From: Candidatus Zixiibacteriota bacterium
GTDB lineage: Bacteria; Zixibacteria; MSB-5A5; RBG-16-43-9
Reading direction: 5' to 3'
Assembly: GCA_022865345.1 (NCBI GenBank)
Contig: JALHSU010000194.1
Location: forward strand, 9,249-73,248
Length of the DNA: 64,000 nt
Shown here: piece by piece, positions 5,320 through 47,692 of the stretch
Position numbering within the stretch: position 1 is the first letter of the stretch
Layout: the number at the start of each line of letters is the position of its first letter
The notes under the pieces: model-generated
Told to the model about the DNA's origin: nothing
The model's database searches: none
What the model saw: the letters and a program-made list of their open reading frames with translations, nothing else
Translations under genes and position numbers: made by a program

Positions 5320-5437
5320 TGTATCACCCTCAAACAAGTTTGAGGGTGATACCCTATACGGGGCTGGGAGCCCCGCCTACGAGAGAAGGGATCTCTTTTT
5401 CCTTTCGTAGGTCGGGCACCCTTGCCCGACTTTTTTG
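5320..5437. repeat. array of four GC-rich hairpins, ending in a hairpin plus T-run (gtcgggcacccttgcccgac tttttt)
   Basis: tcaccctcaaac/gtttgagggtga (12-bp stem), ggggct-ggg-agcccc, cctacga...tcgtagg and gtcgggca/tgcccgac, all within an AT-rich intergenic stretch. Confidence 0.6.
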
Positions 5438-5445
5438 GAAAAAAA

Positions 5446-5489
5446 TGGAAGGCTAAAAAGTCTCAAGACCTTGAGAACTTCCGCTACAT
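5446..5489. repeat. short repeat family G, copy 1 (atggaaggc...tccgctacat), carrying an inserted gtctcaagaccttgagac hairpin
   Basis: Shares aaaaatggaaggct...tccgctacat with 43480-43506 and 61323-61350. The tctcaagaccttgag hairpin recurs at 54853. Confidence 0.5.
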
Positions 5490-5526
5490 AATAACGATCT
5501 TAAACCTGCCTAACCCTGTCATCAAG

Positions 5527-5558
5527 ACAAAAAAAGAGATGTTCTGCAGAACATCTCT
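5527..5558 (-). terminator. rho-independent terminator of metG
   Basis: Perfect hairpin agagatgttctg/cagaacatctct followed on the minus strand by TTTTTTTG, about 25 nt after the metG stop. Confidence 0.7.
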
Positions 5559-5583
5559 TTTAAAATCTCGATTTACCTGGGTC

Positions 5584-11846: not shown

Positions 11847-12508
11847 TTTCTTATCTCTCCTTTTTCCAGCTGGATTACCCTCCCTTTAAAACTCCTGGCT
11901 ATATCGTCTCTATAAGTAGTCACAAGCACTGTCGAACCTTTTAGATTGATCTCCTTGAAAAAATCGATAATCTCAAAGGTGACCTTTTGGTCCAATCCAC
12001 CAAAAGGCTCATCTGCCAGGATAATCAGGGGCTCGTTTATAACTGCCCGGGCAATGGCAAGCTTTTTCCTTTCCCCGGCCGAGATCTCCTTCGGGAAAGA
12101 TTTTCTTTTGGGATAGAGGTTGAATGCTCCTAAAAGTTCTGCTGTTCTGGACTTGATATGTTTCTCTTTTTTACCTGAGAGCCTCAAAGGTAAGGAGAGG
12201 TTTTCTTCCAGAGTTCTTTCCTTGATCAGCTTTAAATCCTCAAACACCACGCCTATCTTTTGCCTCAGCTCCGGCAATCTCTTTTTATTCTTTTCCAGGC
12301 TGTTGTATTTATCTATGAAGATTACTCCGCTGCTTGGCTCTTCCTCCATCCACAAAAGCTTGAGTAAAGTAGTTTTCCCCGCCCCATTTGGCCCAACCAG
12401 AAAAAGGAATTCTCCCTTTTCTATTTCCAAATCTACATTTTTTAGAGCGCTTCTCCAGCCATCATAGATTTTGGAGACGCCTTGCAATTTTATGAGGATA
12501 TCTTTCAT
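11843..12508 (-). CDS. ftsE: cell division ABC transporter ATP-binding protein FtsE
   Basis: Walker [15 protein letters not shown], an ABC signature variant, and Walker B ILADEP. Confidence 0.85.
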   Translation of the reverse strand: MKDILIKLQGVSKIYDGWRSALKNVDLEIEKGEFLFLVGPNGAGKTTLLKLLWMEEEPSSGVIFIDKYNSLEKNKKRLPELRQKIGVVFEDLKLIKERTLEENLSLPLRLSGKKEKHIKSRTAELLGAFNLYPKRKSFPKEISAGERKKLAIARAVINEPLIILADEPFGGLDQKVTFEIIDFFKEINLKGSTVLVTTYRDDIARSFKGRVIQLEKGEIRK

Positions 12509-12517
12509 CTAATCCAC

Positions 12518-13543
12518 TTAGTTAAACCAGATCTTGTCCAAGTTGTCCGAAGATTCGGCTAACTTCGCTGCCAGCATTATCGCCTTGATCATCCCCCCTG
12601 GGTCTGCTTTTCCTTTTCCGGCAATATCCAAGGCTGTTCCGAAATCGGGAGAGGTGCGAATAACCGGAACCCCGGCTGTCAGATTCACTGAGCTTCCCAA
12701 TCCTTTTATCTTCATCGGAATAAGCCCCTGGTCGTGATACATCGCTACTATACAATCGAATCCAGATGAACGCTTCGGATTGAATAGAGAATCAGCAGCA
12801 AATGGACCGGATACATTTATCCTTTTTCTCTGAGCTTTTTTTATTGCCGGCAGGATTGCTTTTTTCTCCTCTTTTCCGAAAAGCCCTTCCTCTCCGGAAT
12901 GAGGATTCAGGGCACACACGCTGATCATTGGCTTTTTTATTTTAAATAAGAATCTCAAGACCTTGTCTGTCAGTTCTATCTTTTCAAAAACCTTTTGAGA
13001 ATTAATCTCTTTACTTACTCTAGATAAAGGCAGATGTGTCGTTACCAGAATTATCTTTAAATCATCCCTTATAAACATCATCCCGAATTTAGTTGAAGCA
13101 GTAAGAAAAGCAATCATCTCAGTCTGACCAGGGAAATCATACCCGGCTAATTTTAGACCTTTTTTGGATAACGGGGCAGTCACAATCCCGTCGATCTCTT
13201 GAGCTAAGGCAAACTGAACCGCATAAACCAGACAGGTAGCCGCCATACTGCCTGAGGTTTTGTTTACCTTTCCGGTTTTGACCTTTTTATAATCTAAATC
13301 GGTGCAATGCAAGATATTTATAACCTTTCCATCAGTATTCATTTCTTCTACTGAGAAGACCCGATTTAATCTGTACCCCCTTGGATATTTTTTAGTGGCT
13401 TGACGAAAAACATCGATGGAGCCAAAAACCAGAGGCACACAAATTCTTTTAACTTCAGGTTTGGTAATTGATTTAACCACCACCTCCGGACCTATCCCGG
13501 CCGGGTCACCCATCGTAATTCCCAGAATCGGCTTTCTTTTCAT
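12518..13543 (-). CDS. pdxA: 4-hydroxythreonine-4-phosphate dehydrogenase
   Basis: PdxA signature ...ILGITMGDPAGIGPEV... The track ORF starts at 13579, but M at 13543 (MKRKPILGIT) matches the usual PdxA N-terminus. Confidence 0.85.
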   Translation of the reverse strand: MKRKPILGITMGDPAGIGPEVVVKSITKPEVKRICVPLVFGSIDVFRQATKKYPRGYRLNRVFSVEEMNTDGKVINILHCTDLDYKKVKTGKVNKTSGSMAATCLVYAVQFALAQEIDGIVTAPLSKKGLKLAGYDFPGQTEMIAFLTASTKFGMMFIRDDLKIILVTTHLPLSRVSKEINSQKVFEKIELTDKVLRFLFKIKKPMISVCALNPHSGEEGLFGKEEKKAILPAIKKAQRKRINVSGPFAADSLFNPKRSSGFDCIVAMYHDQGLIPMKIKGLGSSVNLTAGVPVIRTSPDFGTALDIAGKGKADPGGMIKAIMLAAKLAESSDNLDKIWFN

Positions 13544-13634
13544 ATCAAAGTAACTTATGCAAAATTTCGAAAATGGCAAGGAAAATCAAAAGTTTCGAAA
13601 ACAAAAAGCAAGAAGCGAGGATCGAGTAGCGGGT

Positions 13635-13742
13635 ATCGGGGGGAAACGGCTTAGCTGAGCCTTCACGACTCTGGTTACTAAATGCAAAGCTCAATAGAGA
13701 GACGCATGCGATGTGTCTCTACTGACTCCATTTTTCCCCGAT
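13635..13742. repeat. MITE-like element bounded by a 12-bp inverted repeat atcggggggaaa / tttttccccgat, with an internal hairpin agagac...gtctct
   Basis: Read directly: the IR arms enclose about 85 bp containing gcatgc-centred hairpins. Confidence 0.55.
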
Positions 13743-13933
13743 GATTTTGAAAAGGTCTCACCCCGATTTAGTATAGCCCATCCCTTTGATGGGTCAACCT
13801 AAAGGTTGATACTCCAACTCAAAATATTGCTTGATAAATCAAGCGACTACAAAATACCCCTACCTGGAAAACCAAAGTCTTCCGCTACAATGTTGAAGAT
13901 TTAATTGAAATGAAGGAATGGATAGGAGAAAAC

Positions 13934-14037
13934 TCAACCCCCGAAAAAATTCTAATCCTTCATCGACTCTAAGAACTTCGGATTGTTCTTGGTCTTTCTT
14001 GTCCGATCCAGTAAGAACTCCATCGCTTCAAGTTGGT
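13934..14037 (-). pseudogene. displaced duplicate of the rho 3' end (last ~28 codons plus ~17 nt of 3' flank)
   Basis: 13951-14037 is about 80% identical to 15220-15306. Reverse-strand translation reads ...[28 protein letters not shown], compared with Rho C-terminus ...[28 protein letters not shown]. The flank aacccccgaaaaaattctaatcc matches aaaccccaaaaagctctaatcc. Confidence 0.8.
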
Positions 14038-14200
14038 TCTGGAATTGGTGTTCCCGAATCAATCCTGCTCAGCCAAGTACGGGAATTCCGATTCCCGCAC
14101 GAACAAGAAGAACTGAAAAACTATTTTGTGAGCAAGATAGATGTTGCGTTTTTTTGGTAAATTACATATAATTATCATAACCACTACTAAAGGAGTAACG

Positions 14201-15082
14201 ATGAAAGCATTTTTAAACCATAGCCTTAGACTATGGATAATAGTGCCTTTGGCAATTACACTACTTTTCTTCACGCTCGTCACCCCTTTCGCAAAGACCC
14301 TGTACCAAGATGGAACCTTTAGTACTACGTTATTAACGGCGTCTTCGATCAAAAATGCCTCAGGTGGATCTCTGAAAAACCTCCAAGTAAAGGGTACTAC
14401 AGGTATAAATCTTATCTCCTTTATACCGATCCAATATCAAAGTATGAACGGTACAAGTGAAGAGTATTATACTGAAGAATACTATTTAGGAAAGCTGGCA
14501 CGTTGGCAAAATTCTTTCAGAATTCGTCAAGGTATCTTATCGTTTCTAATTGGCACTACTTTGGCAGCATACGGAATTTATGGACTCACAAAAAAGAATA
14601 ACGACGGTGTATTATTGACAGCCAGTGGCATATCCATTGATGTTTTAGGATTATATTTAATCTATGGAAAAAGCCGGGCTCAGAAGTCTTATGAGAAGGC
14701 TTGGCAAATGGAAGATGAAGCAGAGAAACATAACTTAACTTTAGAGACCTTGCACTTTTATGCTCGGAATTATAGAGCATTTAGGATAGGCTCTGCAATT
14801 TTGTGTACAGCAGGCGGAATTTGGGTCCTCAAACAGCCAGACCCAGAGGAATGTGAGCCCTGGAATTACGCTCTTGGACCGAATCCCTGTGATCTATTGA
14901 ACCCTGAGGAACAGAAAACTGCAAAAACGATGAGCACAGTTGCTCTCTTCTCTTCAGCCATCTTTCTCTTGGTTTGGAAGAGTCCCCCTGAGAAACTTTA
15001 TAAGAAATATCGAGGTTTGCATCAGAATCTTGGTCTGGATAGAAAAGGGGATGTAATCTTATTCTTTTCCTATTATTTCTGA
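14201..15082 (+). CDS. hypothetical integral membrane protein (AT-rich islet gene)
   Basis: Strong SD aaaggag 7 nt before ATG 14201 (the track ORF starts earlier at 14141). There are several hydrophobic helices. It is one of the few plus-strand genes, has lower GC than its neighbours, and is bracketed by the duplicated rho 3' end. Confidence 0.55.
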   Translation: MKAFLNHSLRLWIIVPLAITLLFFTLVTPFAKTLYQDGTFSTTLLTASSIKNASGGSLKNLQVKGTTGINLISFIPIQYQSMNGTSEEYYTEEYYLGKLARWQNSFRIRQGILSFLIGTTLAAYGIYGLTKKNNDGVLLTASGISIDVLGLYLIYGKSRAQKSYEKAWQMEDEAEKHNLTLETLHFYARNYRAFRIGSAILCTAGGIWVLKQPDPEECEPWNYALGPNPCDLLNPEEQKTAKTMSTVALFSSAIFLLVWKSPPEKLYKKYRGLHQNLGLDRKGDVILFFSYYF

Positions 15083-15219
15083 GCTGATAACAGGTAACAT
15101 TGTTTTTACATTGAACGACCTAGGATTAAGTCAAAGACAGGCTGAAGTTTTAATCTTATTCTTCTTTTATGAATGTAAACTAAAGGGCAGATTAAAGAAC
15201 GATTAAACCCCAAAAAGCT

Positions 15220-16467
15220 CTAATCCTTCATCGACTCTAAGAACTTGGAGTTGTTTTTGGTTTTTCTTATCCTGTCAAGCAAGAACTCCATAGCCTCGAC
15301 TGAGTTCATCTCGTTTAGGAATCTCCTTAAAATCCAGATCTTGCTTAACTCCTCCTCAGACAGAAGCAGTTCTTCCTTACGGGTGCCAGAACGGTTGATA
15401 TCCATAGCCGGGAAGATCCTGCGGTCCTGCAGCCGGCGGTCTAAGACTATCTCCATATTTCCGGTTCCTTTGAACTCCTCGAAGATGACTTCATCCATCC
15501 GGCTGCCGGTCTCGATCAAGGCAGTAGCCATAATGGTGAGGCTCCCGCCCTCTTCGATATTCCGGGCTGCGCCAAAAAACCTTTTCGGTTTCTGCAGGGC
15601 GTTAGCATCCACTCCACCGGAGAGGATTTTTCCGCTGTGAGGAACAACTGCATTATGCGCCCGGGCTAAACGGGTGATACTGTCCAAAAGGATAACTACA
15701 TCCTGCTGGTGCTCCACCAGTCTTTTGGCTTTTTCTATCACCATATCTGCCACCTGCACGTGCCGATCTGCCGGCTCATCAAAGGTGGAACTGACCACCT
15801 CTCCTTTAACCGAACGCTTCATATCGGTGACCTCTTCTGGCCTTTCATCGATCAGAAGCACTATCAGCTTTATCTCCGGGTGGTTGGCGGTGACGCTGTT
15901 GGCGATCTTCTGCAGAAGGATAGTCTTTCCAGCCTTGGGAGGGGAGACAATCAAACCCCTCTGACCCTTTCCAACCGGACAGACCAGATCCATTATCCGC
16001 ATAGAGACTTCTTCGGTAGCGGTTTCCAGTTGAATCCTTTTTTCCGGATAAAGAGGTGTCAAGTTGTCAAATAAAACCTTATGTTTTGCCACCTCCGGGT
16101 TCTCGAAATTAACTGCCTCGATCTTCAAAAGGGCAAAATACCGCTCCGAATCCTTGGGAGGTCTCACCTGTCCGGAGATAGTATCCCCCTTCCTCAAATC
16201 GAACCTTTTTATCTGGGAAGGGGAAACGTAGATATCATCCGGGCCCGGAAGATAGTTATAATCCGGGGAACGCAGGAAACCATAACCCTCTGGCAAAATT
16301 TCCAGAACCCCTTCTGCGAAGATAAGTCCGTTTTTCTCAGTCTTTGCCTCTAAGATCTTGAATATTAGATCCTGTTTTCTCAAGCCCGCGCAGCCGGGGA
16401 TGTCTAACTCCTCCGCCAGTTTCAAAAGCTCCGACACGGTCTTGCTTTTAAGCTCAACTATATCCAT
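15220..16467 (-). CDS. rho: transcription termination factor Rho
   Basis: N-terminal Rho_N domain ([23 protein letters not shown]), cold-shock-like RNA-binding domain and a RecA-type ATPase with a Walker A variant (GKTILLQ). Confidence 0.92.
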
Positions 16468-16606
16468 AAATTCACCTCTTAAAATATGATTTGATTATAT
16501 ATTCCTTAGTTTTTGTCTAATTCTTTATCTAAACCTTCCAGGCAGATAAAAGAAGAGAGATCCTTTTCGATTCAAGCAGTCCGACTTAAAGCTGATCTTC
16601 TGACCT

Positions 16607-16993
16607 TTAGGCAACTGACCTGTTCTTTTTAAGTAGTCTGATTTTTTCTTTGATCTGTTTCACCTTTGCATCCCCCCATAATCTTTCTAACCCGTAGAAC
16701 TCCCTGGTTTCGTCTAAGAAGATATGCACCACCACGTCCACGTAATCTAAAAGTATCCACTTGGAATTCTGGTACCCCTCGGCATGCCAAGCTCTTATCC
16801 CCTTTTTCTTGAGGCTTTCAGTTATATGGTCCGCGATCGCCCTGGCCTGTAACTCCACCTCTGCAGAACAGACTAGGAAGTAATCGGTGATATCCGCCAC
16901 TTTCCTCAGGTCCAGAACCTTTATGTCTGCGGCTTTTTTCTCCAGGGCGTATCTGCCAATTAAATTTGCTAACCTCTGAGAAGAGATTTTCAA
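16607..16993 (-). CDS. rsfS: ribosomal silencing factor RsfS (Iojap family)
   Basis: ...DITDYFLVCSAEVELQARAIADHITESLKK...WILLDYVDVVVHIF... matches the RsfS family. Confidence 0.8.
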   Translation of the reverse strand: MKISSQRLANLIGRYALEKKAADIKVLDLRKVADITDYFLVCSAEVELQARAIADHITESLKKKGIRAWHAEGYQNSKWILLDYVDVVVHIFLDETREFYGLERLWGDAKVKQIKEKIRLLKKNRSVA

Positions 16994-17041
16994 CTTGAGC
17001 TTTTCTTCCTCCCTACGGGTCGTAAAGCTTTTATCGACCTT

Positions 17042-17539
17042 TTAATCTTTTAGTTTAAAAATCTTCTGATAATCCTGACCCAGGATCAGGGTATAGCCTA
17101 TGTTCAGATAATTGTTTTCCAGCTGCCGGGTGAGGATGTTTTTCTTCTTCAGACCGATTTTTTCACCGATCAGCAGGGCGGTTTTCTCCTCTCCCATCCT
17201 ATCCAGAAGAAGACTTTCCTTGACCAGGGAATCCGGCAAGTCTTTCTGTTCAACTATAACCAGATAATAGGGGCTGAAATTTTTTTTCTCCAGGAACTGG
17301 GCAAAACCAGGACTGATTCTTTTGCCTGAGGAGTTCAGCACTTGCACTCGCAAAGGATTCGTTCTCAGACTCCCCTCTGCTTGAGTCTGGGTTAACCTTT
17401 TGGCTGAAGAGAGAACAAATAATATTATCAATAAACCCAAAAAGGCTATACCCAGATCCACAAACCTTCCCCCCCGTTTTGCTTTGGACCTCTTGCGGTA
17501 AAAACGATACCTTTTATCCGCGCCTTTTCGCTTGAACAT
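17042..17539 (-). CDS. membrane-anchored protein with LytR/CpsA/Psr C-terminal (LytR_C)-like domain
   Basis: Basic N-terminus, one TM, then ...PLRVQVLNSSGKRISPGFAQFLEK...DLPDSLV..., which resembles LytR_C domains. Confidence 0.4.
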   Translation of the reverse strand: MFKRKGADKRYRFYRKRSKAKRGGRFVDLGIAFLGLLIILFVLSSAKRLTQTQAEGSLRTNPLRVQVLNSSGKRISPGFAQFLEKKNFSPYYLVIVEQKDLPDSLVKESLLLDRMGEEKTALLIGEKIGLKKKNILTRQLENNYLNIGYTLILGQDYQKIFKLKD

Positions 17540-20118: not shown

Positions 20119-20174
20119 TTTAAATTGGTTCCATAACTTCAATGAGTAGCGAGGAGATAGGTATGAGGGATAAA

Positions 20175-20384
20175 TCACCACTCGATTTGTGGATATCTCT
20201 GTTTTATTTCAGACGGAATGTTCTTGGTTGCTTCACCGATTATCTCCAGGTTCCTTATAACTGCGTCGATCAGCATCTGATTGCTGGTAAATTCCTCAAA
20301 CGACTTGCCCTTCACATACTCCAGAATTCTCTTGGCGCAATCCCGTATGTCGGTGATAAAGAGCACATAATCCCTTTTAGGCAT
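20175..20384 (-). pseudogene. hepT: HepT (DUF86) toxin remnant, C-terminally truncated before the Rx4HxY catalytic motif
   Basis: 69 aa matching the DUF86 N-terminal two-thirds (...SFEEFTSNQMLIDAVIRNLEIIGEATKNIPSEIKQRYPQIEW*). The stop falls directly after the conserved P-x-I-(P/E)-W. None of the three downstream frames continues the family sequence. Confidence 0.7.
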
Positions 20385-40594: not shown

Positions 40595-40745
40595 TGTAGT
40601 CGCTCGATTTATCGAGCCAAGAACCCGTAGGGCATCCTGCTAAAAGCGGGACAACTTTGAGGATGACATGTACAAACCTGAAGGTCCAAGATGGATCTTG
40701 AGATTTGCCCTACGAAAAAACCAGCCCAATAAATTGGGCAACTAC
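40595..40745. repeat. TIR-family T element, copy 2 (tgtagtcgc ... gcaactaca, enclosing ~130 bp)
   Basis: The 9-bp terminal IR has one mismatch. Inner hairpins are gctcgat-tt-atcgagc and cccaat-aa-attggg. Confidence 0.6.
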
Positions 40746-47626: not shown

Positions 47627-47692
47627 TTGCTCGATTCATCGAGCTTTTTTTATGTTGCGCCTGGCACTTGCCTGATAAATCAGGCAACTACA
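47623..47692. repeat. TIR-family T element, copy 3 (tgtagttgc ... gcaactaca); the Mut7-C stop codon TAG lies inside the left TIR
   Basis: Perfect 9-bp IR. Inner hairpins are gctcgat-tc-atcgagc and gcctgat-aa-atcaggc (a different sequence, same structure as cccaat-aa-attggg in copies 1 and 2). Confidence 0.65.

Follow-up and report, generated by a model that had tools for sequence, protein, structure and literature searches.

A single-gene insertion between rho and pdxA

Within the window, the 64-kb stretch of DNA analysed here, an intact minus-strand rho gene is separated from the minus-strand pdxA gene by a plus-strand gene for a membrane protein, and a copy of the rho 3' end lies on either side of that gene. 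The features of the locus, read from rho towards pdxA, are as follows.

15220..16467, minus strand: rho, 415 aa, intact, with Pfam domains Rho_N, Rho_RNA_bind and ATP-synt_ab
15220-15307, minus strand: last 88 nt of rho, forming part of the proximal repeat copy
15208..15307, minus strand: proximal (attL-like) repeat copy, the host-type rho end up to the stop and then the first bases of P'
15219..15246, minus strand: 28-nt block matching 13951-13978 exactly, in the rho sense AAGTTCTTAGAGTCGATGAAGGATTAGA
15083..15218, minus strand: P', the islet-side spacer from the rho stop to the convergent cargo stop, sequence stretch GGGTTTAATCGTTCTTTAATCTGCCC
14201..15082, plus strand: cargo gene for a 293-aa orphan membrane protein (ORF and hydropathy), with AAGGAG at 14190-14195
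14040..14200, plus strand: J, the islet-specific spacer from the rho fragment to the cargo start, missing from the empty site of contig L003 and presumed to hold the cargo promoter and 5' UTR
13952..14039, minus strand: distal (attR-like) repeat copy, an 88-nt rho 3' fragment with reading frame and stop intact on translation
13580..13951, minus strand: host flank B', the normal rho-pdxA spacer, now 3' of the rho fragment and collinear with L003
12518..13579, minus strand: pdxA (Pfam PdxA, E = 3.8e-98), the conserved far side of the hotspot described below

A reading made earlier from the sequence alone had proposed that the rho end is duplicated at about 80% identity, that the distal copy still encodes the Rho C-terminus and that a strong Shine-Dalgarno sequence precedes the 293-aa plus-strand gene, and all three points were confirmed. 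A repeat search returned a direct repeat of 100 nt, 81% identical, at 13940-14039 and 15208-15307 with a spacing of 1268 nt, and this pair is the sole long repeat in 12500-17000. By blastn the two copies match at E = 2e-21/2e-22, with no third copy in the 64-kb window, and their longest exact identity is the 28-nt block, which comprises the last 8 rho codons, the stop and 1 further nt. The minus-strand translation of the distal copy is the C-terminus as first written, and AAGGAG stands 5 nt before the ATG of the cargo ORF. The cassette adds 1268 nt to the Zixibacteria rho-pdxA gap, with one gene in about 1.27 kb laid out as P', the membrane-protein gene, J and the roughly 88-nt rho fragment, and its unique 1168 nt consist of that single ORF and the two short spacers. 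Alignments also hint at possible decayed rho homology 5' of the rho fragment, at 14040-14110. Neither an Rfam search (E<=1) over 12000-17500 nor a tRNA/tmRNA search of the whole window gave a match; the insertion target is not an RNA gene.

Comparison with related contigs shows that the cassette is a true insertion at the rho 3' end, as had been proposed, and that it is polymorphic, with an exact empty site in relatives. The Rho protein is 100% identical on contigs L003-L007 and the window, and the best Rho matches are labelled candidate division Zixibacteria. L003 carries the exact empty site, with rho directly beside pdxA and with its one rho end aligning to both window copies; the two sequences are collinear over 21 kb, and the sole break near rho is 14030-15207. 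B' follows the L003 sequence, beginning at the rho end and continuing into pdxA, at 90-91% identity, and the 408 nt between the fragment stop and the pdxA ATG in the window equal the distance from the rho stop to pdxA in L003. The empty site recurs in L090 and L091, from a sister lineage, and the rho-pdxA-ftsE adjacency is also found in the distant Ignavibacteriaceae/Melioribacter MAGs L027, L049 and L056.

Across strains, the rho-pdxA gap is a general gene-exchange hotspot in Zixibacteria, with at least six cargo states in addition to the empty one: the gap may be empty or may encode proteins of 293 aa, 319-332 aa, 539 aa, 260+539 aa, 443+481 aa or 1315 aa plus more. None of the other cargo sets in the gap is surrounded by a rho duplication. 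The palindrome GCTTGATTTATCAAGC was considered as an att site of the hotspot cassettes and was rejected, as it is not duplicated around the large cassettes. The 293-aa cassette seems to be a neat example of such exchange, though not an especially unusual one.

Four hydrophobic helices are clear in the cargo protein and a fifth is possible; they comprise an N-terminal signal-anchor and three to four more. The suggestion that it might belong to a defence or abortive-infection family was not borne out: there was no PADLOC match at E<=1 and nothing above threshold in Pfam or NCBIfam, and the only PHROGs match was to a family of unknown function (E = 0.044); no defence or phage family was matched. 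A profile search of 1.84 billion representatives yielded eight sequences at E<=1e-3, all weak relatives with no informative domains; one homologue (P0002) is 45% identical to the cargo and shares long conserved blocks with it. The gene was not found in species-representative genomes or viral contigs, a metagenome scan recovered only L006, and the AlphaFold2 model is unusable (pLDDT 39). Like the other cargoes at this site, the protein is probably an envelope protein involved in strain-specific surface variation.

Hybrid repeat copies and a second host

The two repeat copies differ in a way that bears on how they arose. Here we write W for the window's own rho type, Y for that of a related Zixibacteria lineage and V for the variant cassette of a second host. 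The proximal copy is 97-100% identical to the L003 rho end up to the stop and diverges beyond it, and the distal copy consists of a foreign, Y-type rho-like left arm, the 28-nt identical block and then the host flank. Approximately 13981-14030 in the distal copy carries Y-lineage bases, and the sequence from 13978 down to the stop is W type, such that the 14 sites distinguishing W from Y in rho read Y W Y Y Y Y o W o W W W W W. Beginning at codon 5, nine synonymous and two non-synonymous codon differences separate the distal fragment from the functional rho, and because the differences are mostly synonymous, the Y-like arm stems from the functional rho of another lineage and not from decay in place. 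The first 50 nt or so of P' (about 15166-15218) likewise share homology with the sequence that naturally follows rho in Y-type lineages, with a local alignment score of 30 against the L094/L090 flanks, compared to 16.4 +/- 2.4 for shuffles (0/1000 reached it), and a local alignment of P' with the W-type flank of L003 gave no significant similarity. The cassette thus carries a mosaic rho 3' region of about 140 nt, made up of Y-like codons, W-like last 28 nt and a Y-like flank.

These alignments give the repeat copies a hybrid structure of the attL/attR kind, and the junction topology is that of a reciprocal (Campbell-type) insertion, with the crossover in the window's host probably falling within the 28-nt block. 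The cassette itself may have originated in a Y-like lineage. Its composition is only slightly unusual for the window, and the description of an AT-rich islet holds weakly: the islet has a GC of 0.388 and the window one of 0.428, cargo GC3 is 0.378 where the mean is 0.477 (sd 0.062), and 6 of 41 long ORFs are lower in GC. The GC of rho, 0.49, exaggerates the apparent contrast. The islet value of 0.388 lies in the range of the A/Y lineages (0.38-0.40), the probable donor side, and outside what the window as a whole shows.

Essentially the same cassette, with a divergence of about 1.4%, lies at rho in a second lineage, A/Y2 (L107, L106 and L006), with differences from the window at 3/137 positions in P', 7/882 in the cargo and 7/161 in J. 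On the rho side it adjoins an A/Y-type rho 3' end, its rho fragment is of Y2 type and matches the rho end that occurs naturally in L102 at 99.7% identity, and on the pdxA side the distal part of L106 is 99.8% identical to the 53-kb A-type contig L109. Since identity between the second host and the window is no more than 73-78% across pdxA-ftsEX and 85% across rho, a unit that differs by about 1.4% probably spread in its present one-gene form. All of the loci compared come from metagenome contigs, and the second host is represented mainly by the 1.4-kb L107, with which the distal sides of L006 and L106 are concordant. The junction alleles of L107, a TAA stop and ATCTTTTTCGGG, are absent from both parent types, and V-type J and a Y2-type rho fragment recur in four contigs from four datasets. 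L006, L106 and L108 switch between W- and V-type alleles at different points, which resembles strain collapse or chimeric assembly. We discarded the idea that L006 and L106 represent a W-type rho that travelled with the cassette into a Y2 genome, given that the switch points differ and that the L107 rho end is of A/Y type.

The J/rho-fragment junction (GGGAAMACCAATTCCMGAACCAACTTGA) has the form ..CCAATTCC[A/C]GAACCAACTTGA.. in the window, L001, L002, L006, L106, L107 and L108, and does not differ between the two host backgrounds. The crossover appears to differ in position: for the A/Y2 host we place it left of position -31, in the Y-like arm, such that its location seems to track local identity in each of the two hosts, a comparison of two events, the second of which lies on short contigs. 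Recombination does occur in this stretch, as natural rho alleles are themselves mosaic near -33, with A-type rho having a body that is 99.4% Y2-like and a last 33 nt that is 97% W-like. The sequence-only reading had further held that the element supplied a replacement 3' end to rho and left the displaced original on the far side. L107 agrees with this, in that the last 30 nt or so on the rho side differ from the far copy; the window does not, as the left 60 nt of its far copy are Y-like and only the last 28 nt or so and the flank are of host type.

Routes of insertion

No integrase or recombinase gene is present in the cassette or within +/-10 kb of it, where there are only housekeeping genes, and the unique 1168 nt hold no mobility pseudogene fragments. 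The interval 34100-34600, which had been suggested as a place for integrase remnants, is only a spacer between uvrA and an outer-membrane-protein gene. A transposon or MITE was rejected as well, with terminal inverted repeats scoring 9 compared to 8.6 +/- 1.7 in shuffles. P' had no match in viral contigs, and no attP-type or circular junction was seen among the loci compared.

On balance, our data lean modestly towards a minimal mobile cassette that lacks a recombinase gene and was inserted by host homologous recombination through the rho copy that it carries. Homologous recombination is favoured over a site-specific recombinase because the crossover seems to sit, for each host, where the carried copy is closest to the host's own sequence: in the 28-nt block for the window's host and in the Y-like arm for the A/Y2 host. 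Under this reading, the carried mosaic rho copy would pair with the resident rho 3' end, and recombination of the host's RecA type would insert the cassette, either through one reciprocal crossover, if the incoming DNA was circular, or through two crossovers, if it was linear, with donor rho then providing the left arm and the rho fragment the right. Either route would leave rho intact and a partial rho duplicate on the far side. Both the RecA-type joining and the form of the incoming DNA are deduced from the product. Several observations weigh against this reading: identity over no more than 28-60 nt supports homologous recombination inefficiently, the single-crossover route requires a circular double-stranded intermediate for which the model offers no source, and the model does not account for the first formation of the J/rho-fragment junction. 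In addition, all three mosaic boundaries fall within about 20-60 nt of one another at the rho end, an arrangement that a recombinase acting in trans could also give.

A more ambitious version of this idea, which we regard as rather unlikely, is a self-sufficient "homology-arm hitch-hiker" whose mosaic rho fragment would offer perfect-match stretches to diverged hosts, with RecA knocking the cassette in and the fragment being renewed each time from the rho of the new host. Were this correct, it would allow insertion at the same site across a genus-level distance (about 73-78% identity in neighbouring genes).

Among the rivals to insertion by homologous recombination, one that we consider improbable though worth weighing is a satellite-type integrative element that would borrow its site-specific recombinase, in trans, from a helper phage, a conjugative element or the chromosome, and for which the rho 3' end would be the attP sequence with a defined core. 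Such an element would be expected to hit the 3' end of a conserved essential gene, to restore it with a fragment that it carries and to be bounded by repeats at both ends, as is found here, and the presence of one cassette in two hosts and the confinement of all mosaic boundaries to the last 60 nt or so of rho also suit it. The absence of any recombinase gene nearby, of an attP junction and of a viral-contig match speaks against it, as does a crossover that appears to depend on the host, lying in the 28-nt block for the window's host and left of -31 for the A/Y2 host. Upstream of the crossover, the cassette also carries about 57 nt of homology to rho, for which a site-specific system would have no use.

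Somewhat less probable again is a one-off event, either homology-facilitated illegitimate recombination or a local duplication, after which the locus was inherited or had its flanks shuffled, leaving the rho fragment as a scar with no role and making the second host an assembly artefact. Displaced 3' ends are known in T6SS and Rhs arrays (PMC5361080), the J/rho-fragment junction arose once, many other cargo sets occupy the gap with no rho duplication, and the allele switching in L006, L106 and L108 is typical of collapsed strains. An artefact does not readily account, however, for the junction alleles peculiar to L107, for the recurrence of V-type J with a Y2 fragment in four contigs and four datasets, or for the close match of the L106 distal side to the 53-kb A-type contig, and a local duplication cannot give Y-like sequence at both inner repeat ends in a W-type genome. 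Least probable is the interpretation first offered, a decayed remnant of a larger island or prophage that has lost its integrase and other genes: att-like hybrid repeats with no integrase and a composition slightly off for the host would fit, but the mobility pseudogenes are missing, and the same 1.27-kb, one-gene content and the same J/fragment junction in hosts 15-27% divergent in their flanking genes would require that the decay came before the transfer or took place identically twice.

Comparison with known systems

If insertion by homologous recombination is correct, one accessory gene can cross between lineages that are only about three-quarters identical in their common genes, with no mobility gene, and a short piece of a conserved essential gene would serve as its landing pad. 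If it is wrong, the cassette is one more scar at a variable locus. Cassettes of this size escape the length and gene-content thresholds of island finders and, if the reading holds, may be an under-counted source of strain variation in the envelope genes of uncultured phyla.

In the minimal mobile elements of Neisseria, differing gene cassettes lie between the same conserved genes, and their exchange is attributed to homologous recombination. The alternative whole-gene cassettes between rho and pdxA and the absence of mobility genes are common to both systems. In classical minimal mobile elements, the flanking genes supply the homology and no duplication is left, whereas the cassette described here comes with a copied piece of one flank and leaves about 90-140 nt of its target duplicated. 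Minimal mobile elements are also defined as having no repeats, and a 100-nt direct repeat flanks this cassette and not the others in the gap.

Integration into a protein-coding gene has familiar examples in e14, which inserts at icd, and SGI1, which inserts at trmE. According to a survey of integrative genetic elements, protein-coding genes are among their targets, and the repeat blocks can reach about 250 bp (PMC7192596). The general design, in which the 3' end of a gene is hit and a fragment borne by attP restores it, has been outlined (PMC7192596, PMC8409611). The rho locus resembles this design in the use of a conserved-gene 3' end, the intact gene, the direct repeats made of a gene fragment and the uninterrupted site in relatives, and in the second host the 3' end on the rho side differs from the displaced one. 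It departs from it in that the cassette has no integrase or other mobility gene and consists of one gene in 1.27 kb, in that its homology reaches upstream of the crossover and in that the two hosts seem to differ in where the crossover fell. The TIGER mapping tool works from integrases and takes no element shorter than 2 kb, and rho is not mentioned in the main text of the survey (PMC7192596).

Homology-facilitated illegitimate recombination is also held to produce the displaced or orphan 3' modules of T6SS effector-immunity arrays, Rhs and CDI loci (PMC5361080). The anchor at those loci is a toxin gene with a variable C-terminus; here it is a housekeeping gene whose protein end is essentially unchanged, and no toxin or immunity function is evident. 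What the two have in common is the arrangement itself, in which a conserved upstream gene acts as the anchor, DNA is inserted behind it and the old 3' end is pushed downstream.

A one-gene cassette between rho and pdxA

The 1.64-kb gap between rho and pdxA in the window holds one ORF, placed between two copies of the rho 3' end:

12518-13579, minus strand: pdxA
13940-14039: distal copy of the repeat, with a rho 3' fragment
14201-15082, plus strand: cargo ORF, 293 aa
15208-15307: proximal, rho-side copy of the repeat
15220-16467, minus strand: rho

A repeat search returned these copies as a direct repeat of 100 nt (81% identical, spacing 1268 nt), the sole long repeat of the rho neighbourhood and without a third copy within the 64-kb window. 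This agrees with the sequence-only reading, which had described a duplication at about 80% identity and a distal duplicate still readable as the Rho C-terminus; on translation that frame is indeed open. A 28-nt block (13951-13978 = 15219-15246) is identical in both copies. The ORF, likewise described there as a membrane-protein gene with an SD, is preceded by AAGGAG and encodes four or five hydrophobic helices. The islet was also called AT-rich, which holds in that its GC is 0.388 vs 0.428 for the window but is overstated, as 6 of the 41 long ORFs are lower in GC. GC3 of the cargo lies 1.6 sd under the mean, and the islet GC matches the A and Y lineages (0.38-0.40; Y is a related Zixibacteria lineage), not the window's own lineage (W).

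The best Rho matches carry the source name candidate division Zixibacteria, and Rho identity to the nearest species-level genome representative is only 83%. On L003, a 167-kb contig encoding an identical Rho protein, pdxA follows directly after rho, and both window copies can be aligned with its one rho 3' end. Window and L003 are collinear over 21 kb, with 14030-15207 as the sole break near rho, and in L003 pdxA lies as far from the rho stop as the window's pdxA ATG lies from the distal rho-fragment stop (408 nt). Two sister-lineage contigs (L090, L091) also have an empty site; the proposed check for relatives with rho adjoining pdxA came out positive. Ignavibacteriaceae and Melioribacter MAGs likewise have rho, pdxA and ftsE side by side, and an insertion is therefore the most likely direction of change.

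The rho-pdxA spacer (13585-13850) is conserved with L003 and gave no match in an Rfam search. It folds somewhat better than shuffled sequence does (minus strand z = -2.0, plus strand z = -2.7); a leader or small RNA could lie here, ahead of pdxA, or nothing at all. The palindrome GCTTGATTTATCAAGC (window 13829-13844; L003 11354, L005 3315, L094 6302, L006 3874 and 3959) is found in all Zixibacteria lineages compared at a conserved place a little beyond the rho stop, 54 nt away at Y-type loci and about 106-108 nt at W-type loci, with a terminator-like score on the minus strand. It occurs twice, 85 nt apart, in L006, L096, L097, L099-L101 and L106, and similar palindromes whose stems carry compensatory changes occur at window 40602-40617 and 47670-47685 (5 matches vs 0.8 expected).

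Junctions in two hosts

Followed in the rho orientation, the proximal copy stays host-type as far as the rho stop and then enters P', the islet-specific flank reaching to the cargo stop, while the distal copy passes from a divergent arm through the 28-nt block into normal host flank. Scored at the 14 rho sites that tell W from Y, the distal copy gives the series Y W Y Y Y Y o W o W W W W W (o, neither), so that its left arm is Y-like and its last ~28 nt are W-type. Counted from codon 5, 9 of the codon differences between this arm and functional rho are synonymous and 2 non-synonymous; the arm was therefore copied from a functioning rho in another lineage, rather than decaying where it lies. 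Over its first ~50 nt, P' is homologous to the flank that naturally follows Y-type rho (score 30 vs 16.4 +/- 2.4 for shuffles, with 0 of 1000 reaching it), and no such homology to the W-type flank was found. Put together, the two inner insert ends give an unbroken ~140 nt of Y-like rho 3' region, which is the topology of a reciprocal (Campbell-type) insertion. The 28-nt block is W-type in both copies and is the one perfect match that the Y-like arm has with W rho; element-specific bases stand on either side (CCG left in the distal copy, AGC... right in the proximal copy), which probably places the exchange inside the block.

The cargo cluster has six members, and a variant cassette (V), seen in a second host of the A/Y2 lineage, occurs on contigs L107, L106, L006 and L108. 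L107 starts with a rho 3' end that matches natural A/Y-type rho at every position (compare L109 and L114) and has junction alleles of its own, a TAA stop and then ATCTTTTTCGGG; P', cargo and J (the islet DNA from cargo start to rho fragment) come next, and the contig ends with a Y2-type rho fragment and 24 nt of Y2 flank, which together match the natural L102 rho end at 99.7% identity. On its pdxA side, L106 is 99.8% identical to the A-type contig L109 (53 kb). Second host and window are 73-78% identical over pdxA-ftsEX and 85% in rho; their cassettes differ at 3 of 137 positions in P', 7 of 882 in the cargo and 7 of 161 in J, with an identical junction of J and rho fragment. Near-identity and the common junction indicate that the cassette passed from lineage to lineage as the one-gene unit it is now.

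In the cargo region of L006, L106, L108 and L117, from different assemblies, W- and V-type cassette alleles are mixed and the switch points differ, a warning against linkage claims from the samples concerned. These contigs are either real population recombinants or strain collapse during assembly; we took L006, L106 and L108 as strain-collapsed or chimeric, left their rho sides out of the second-host analysis and read its proximal junction from L107 alone.

Routes of insertion

In the second (A/Y2) host, the change from host to element within the proximal copy comes left of -31, in the arm that matches Y2 perfectly. The crossover thus seems to move to the best-matching stretch in each host, which homologous recombination predicts and a fixed-core recombinase does not. 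We give somewhat more credence than doubt to insertion by host recombination, in which the carried rho fragment would pair as a homology arm and the cassette would be joined to the resident rho end; the observed structure would follow from one crossover of a circle as well as from a double crossover if the incoming DNA is linear and includes the donor's rho. No circle-type junction was seen among the loci compared, and cargo and P' had no match in viral contigs.

A recombinase acting in trans is unlikely. The cassette and the 10 kb on either side hold no integrase or other mobility gene, as the sequence-only reading had stated for the islet, and terminal inverted repeats of the cassette were not found; such an enzyme, if bound to a fixed core, would have to be squared with the moving crossover. 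It is rather improbable that a one-off illegitimate event, together with artefacts of assembly, explains the locus. That the islet is a decayed larger island, as first proposed, is very improbable, since the unit was apparently already one-gene when crossing between lineages. The stretch 34100-34600, proposed as a place to look for integrase remnants, falls within a spacer (34051-34613) that has no ORF of at least 70 aa and is bounded by:

31219-34050, minus strand: uvrA
34614-36038, plus strand: outer-membrane-type protein, 474 aa

Natural rho alleles are themselves mosaic: the A-type body is 99.4% Y2-like, its last 33 nt (L109 9216-9248) are 97% W-type and only 76% Y2-type, and the A-type downstream flank also carries the W-family hairpin. 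The last ~30 nt of rho thus travel together with the cassette that follows them.

Hotspot, cargo and known systems

The rho-pdxA gap is a hotspot, with the following content across contigs:

nothing
the 1.27-kb cassette
319-332-aa Por_Secre_tail protein
539-aa Por_Secre_tail protein
539-aa Por_Secre_tail protein and 260-aa dockerin-like protein
443-aa and 481-aa pair
1315-aa S8 peptidase, then 908-aa Por_Secre_tail protein

The other cargoes are mostly secreted or surface proteins, and a second rho end is absent beside all of these other sets. The panB-panC gap, ~5 kb from rho, is a second hotspot, with accessory genes that differ by lineage (an MNT/HepT toxin-antitoxin pair, an NmeDI_C restriction-like gene, or N6_N4 methyltransferases; L003 5306-5975, L096/L097/L099 446-1394, L103 1-1378, L109 962-5244; window side ~20170-20180). 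Another small presence/absence polymorphism is a 255-aa HNH_2 endonuclease gene between metG-like and TatD genes (L003 19595-20373), where the window has only ~225 nt (5357-5582).

The cargo has one 45%-identical relative, P0002 on contig L008, which does not adjoin rho, and long blocks conserved between them show that the cargo is a real gene. A profile search returned only 8 of 1.84 billion representatives at E<=1e-3, none informative, and the structure model was unusable. Comparison with defence and abortive-infection families, as had been proposed, matched no defence family, and phage, Pfam and NCBIfam families gave no match either. The W and V cargo alleles (14201-15082 vs L107 272-1153) differ at 6 non-synonymous and 1 synonymous codons, counts too few to interpret, although the difference may hint at relaxed or diversifying selection. 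From its position and by analogy with the other hotspot cargoes, we infer that the cargo may be an envelope protein adding to strain-specific surface variation.

In design the cassette resembles those integrative elements that insert at the 3' end of a gene and make the gene whole again with a fragment from attP (PMC7192596, PMC8409611); unlike them, it has no integrase. The rho-pdxA site behaves as a minimal-mobile-element hotspot, yet the cassette differs from minimal mobile elements in that it carries a piece of its target along and leaves the target duplicated. The displaced rho 3' end is reminiscent of T6SS and Rhs arrays, where homology-facilitated illegitimate recombination leaves such products (PMC5361080).
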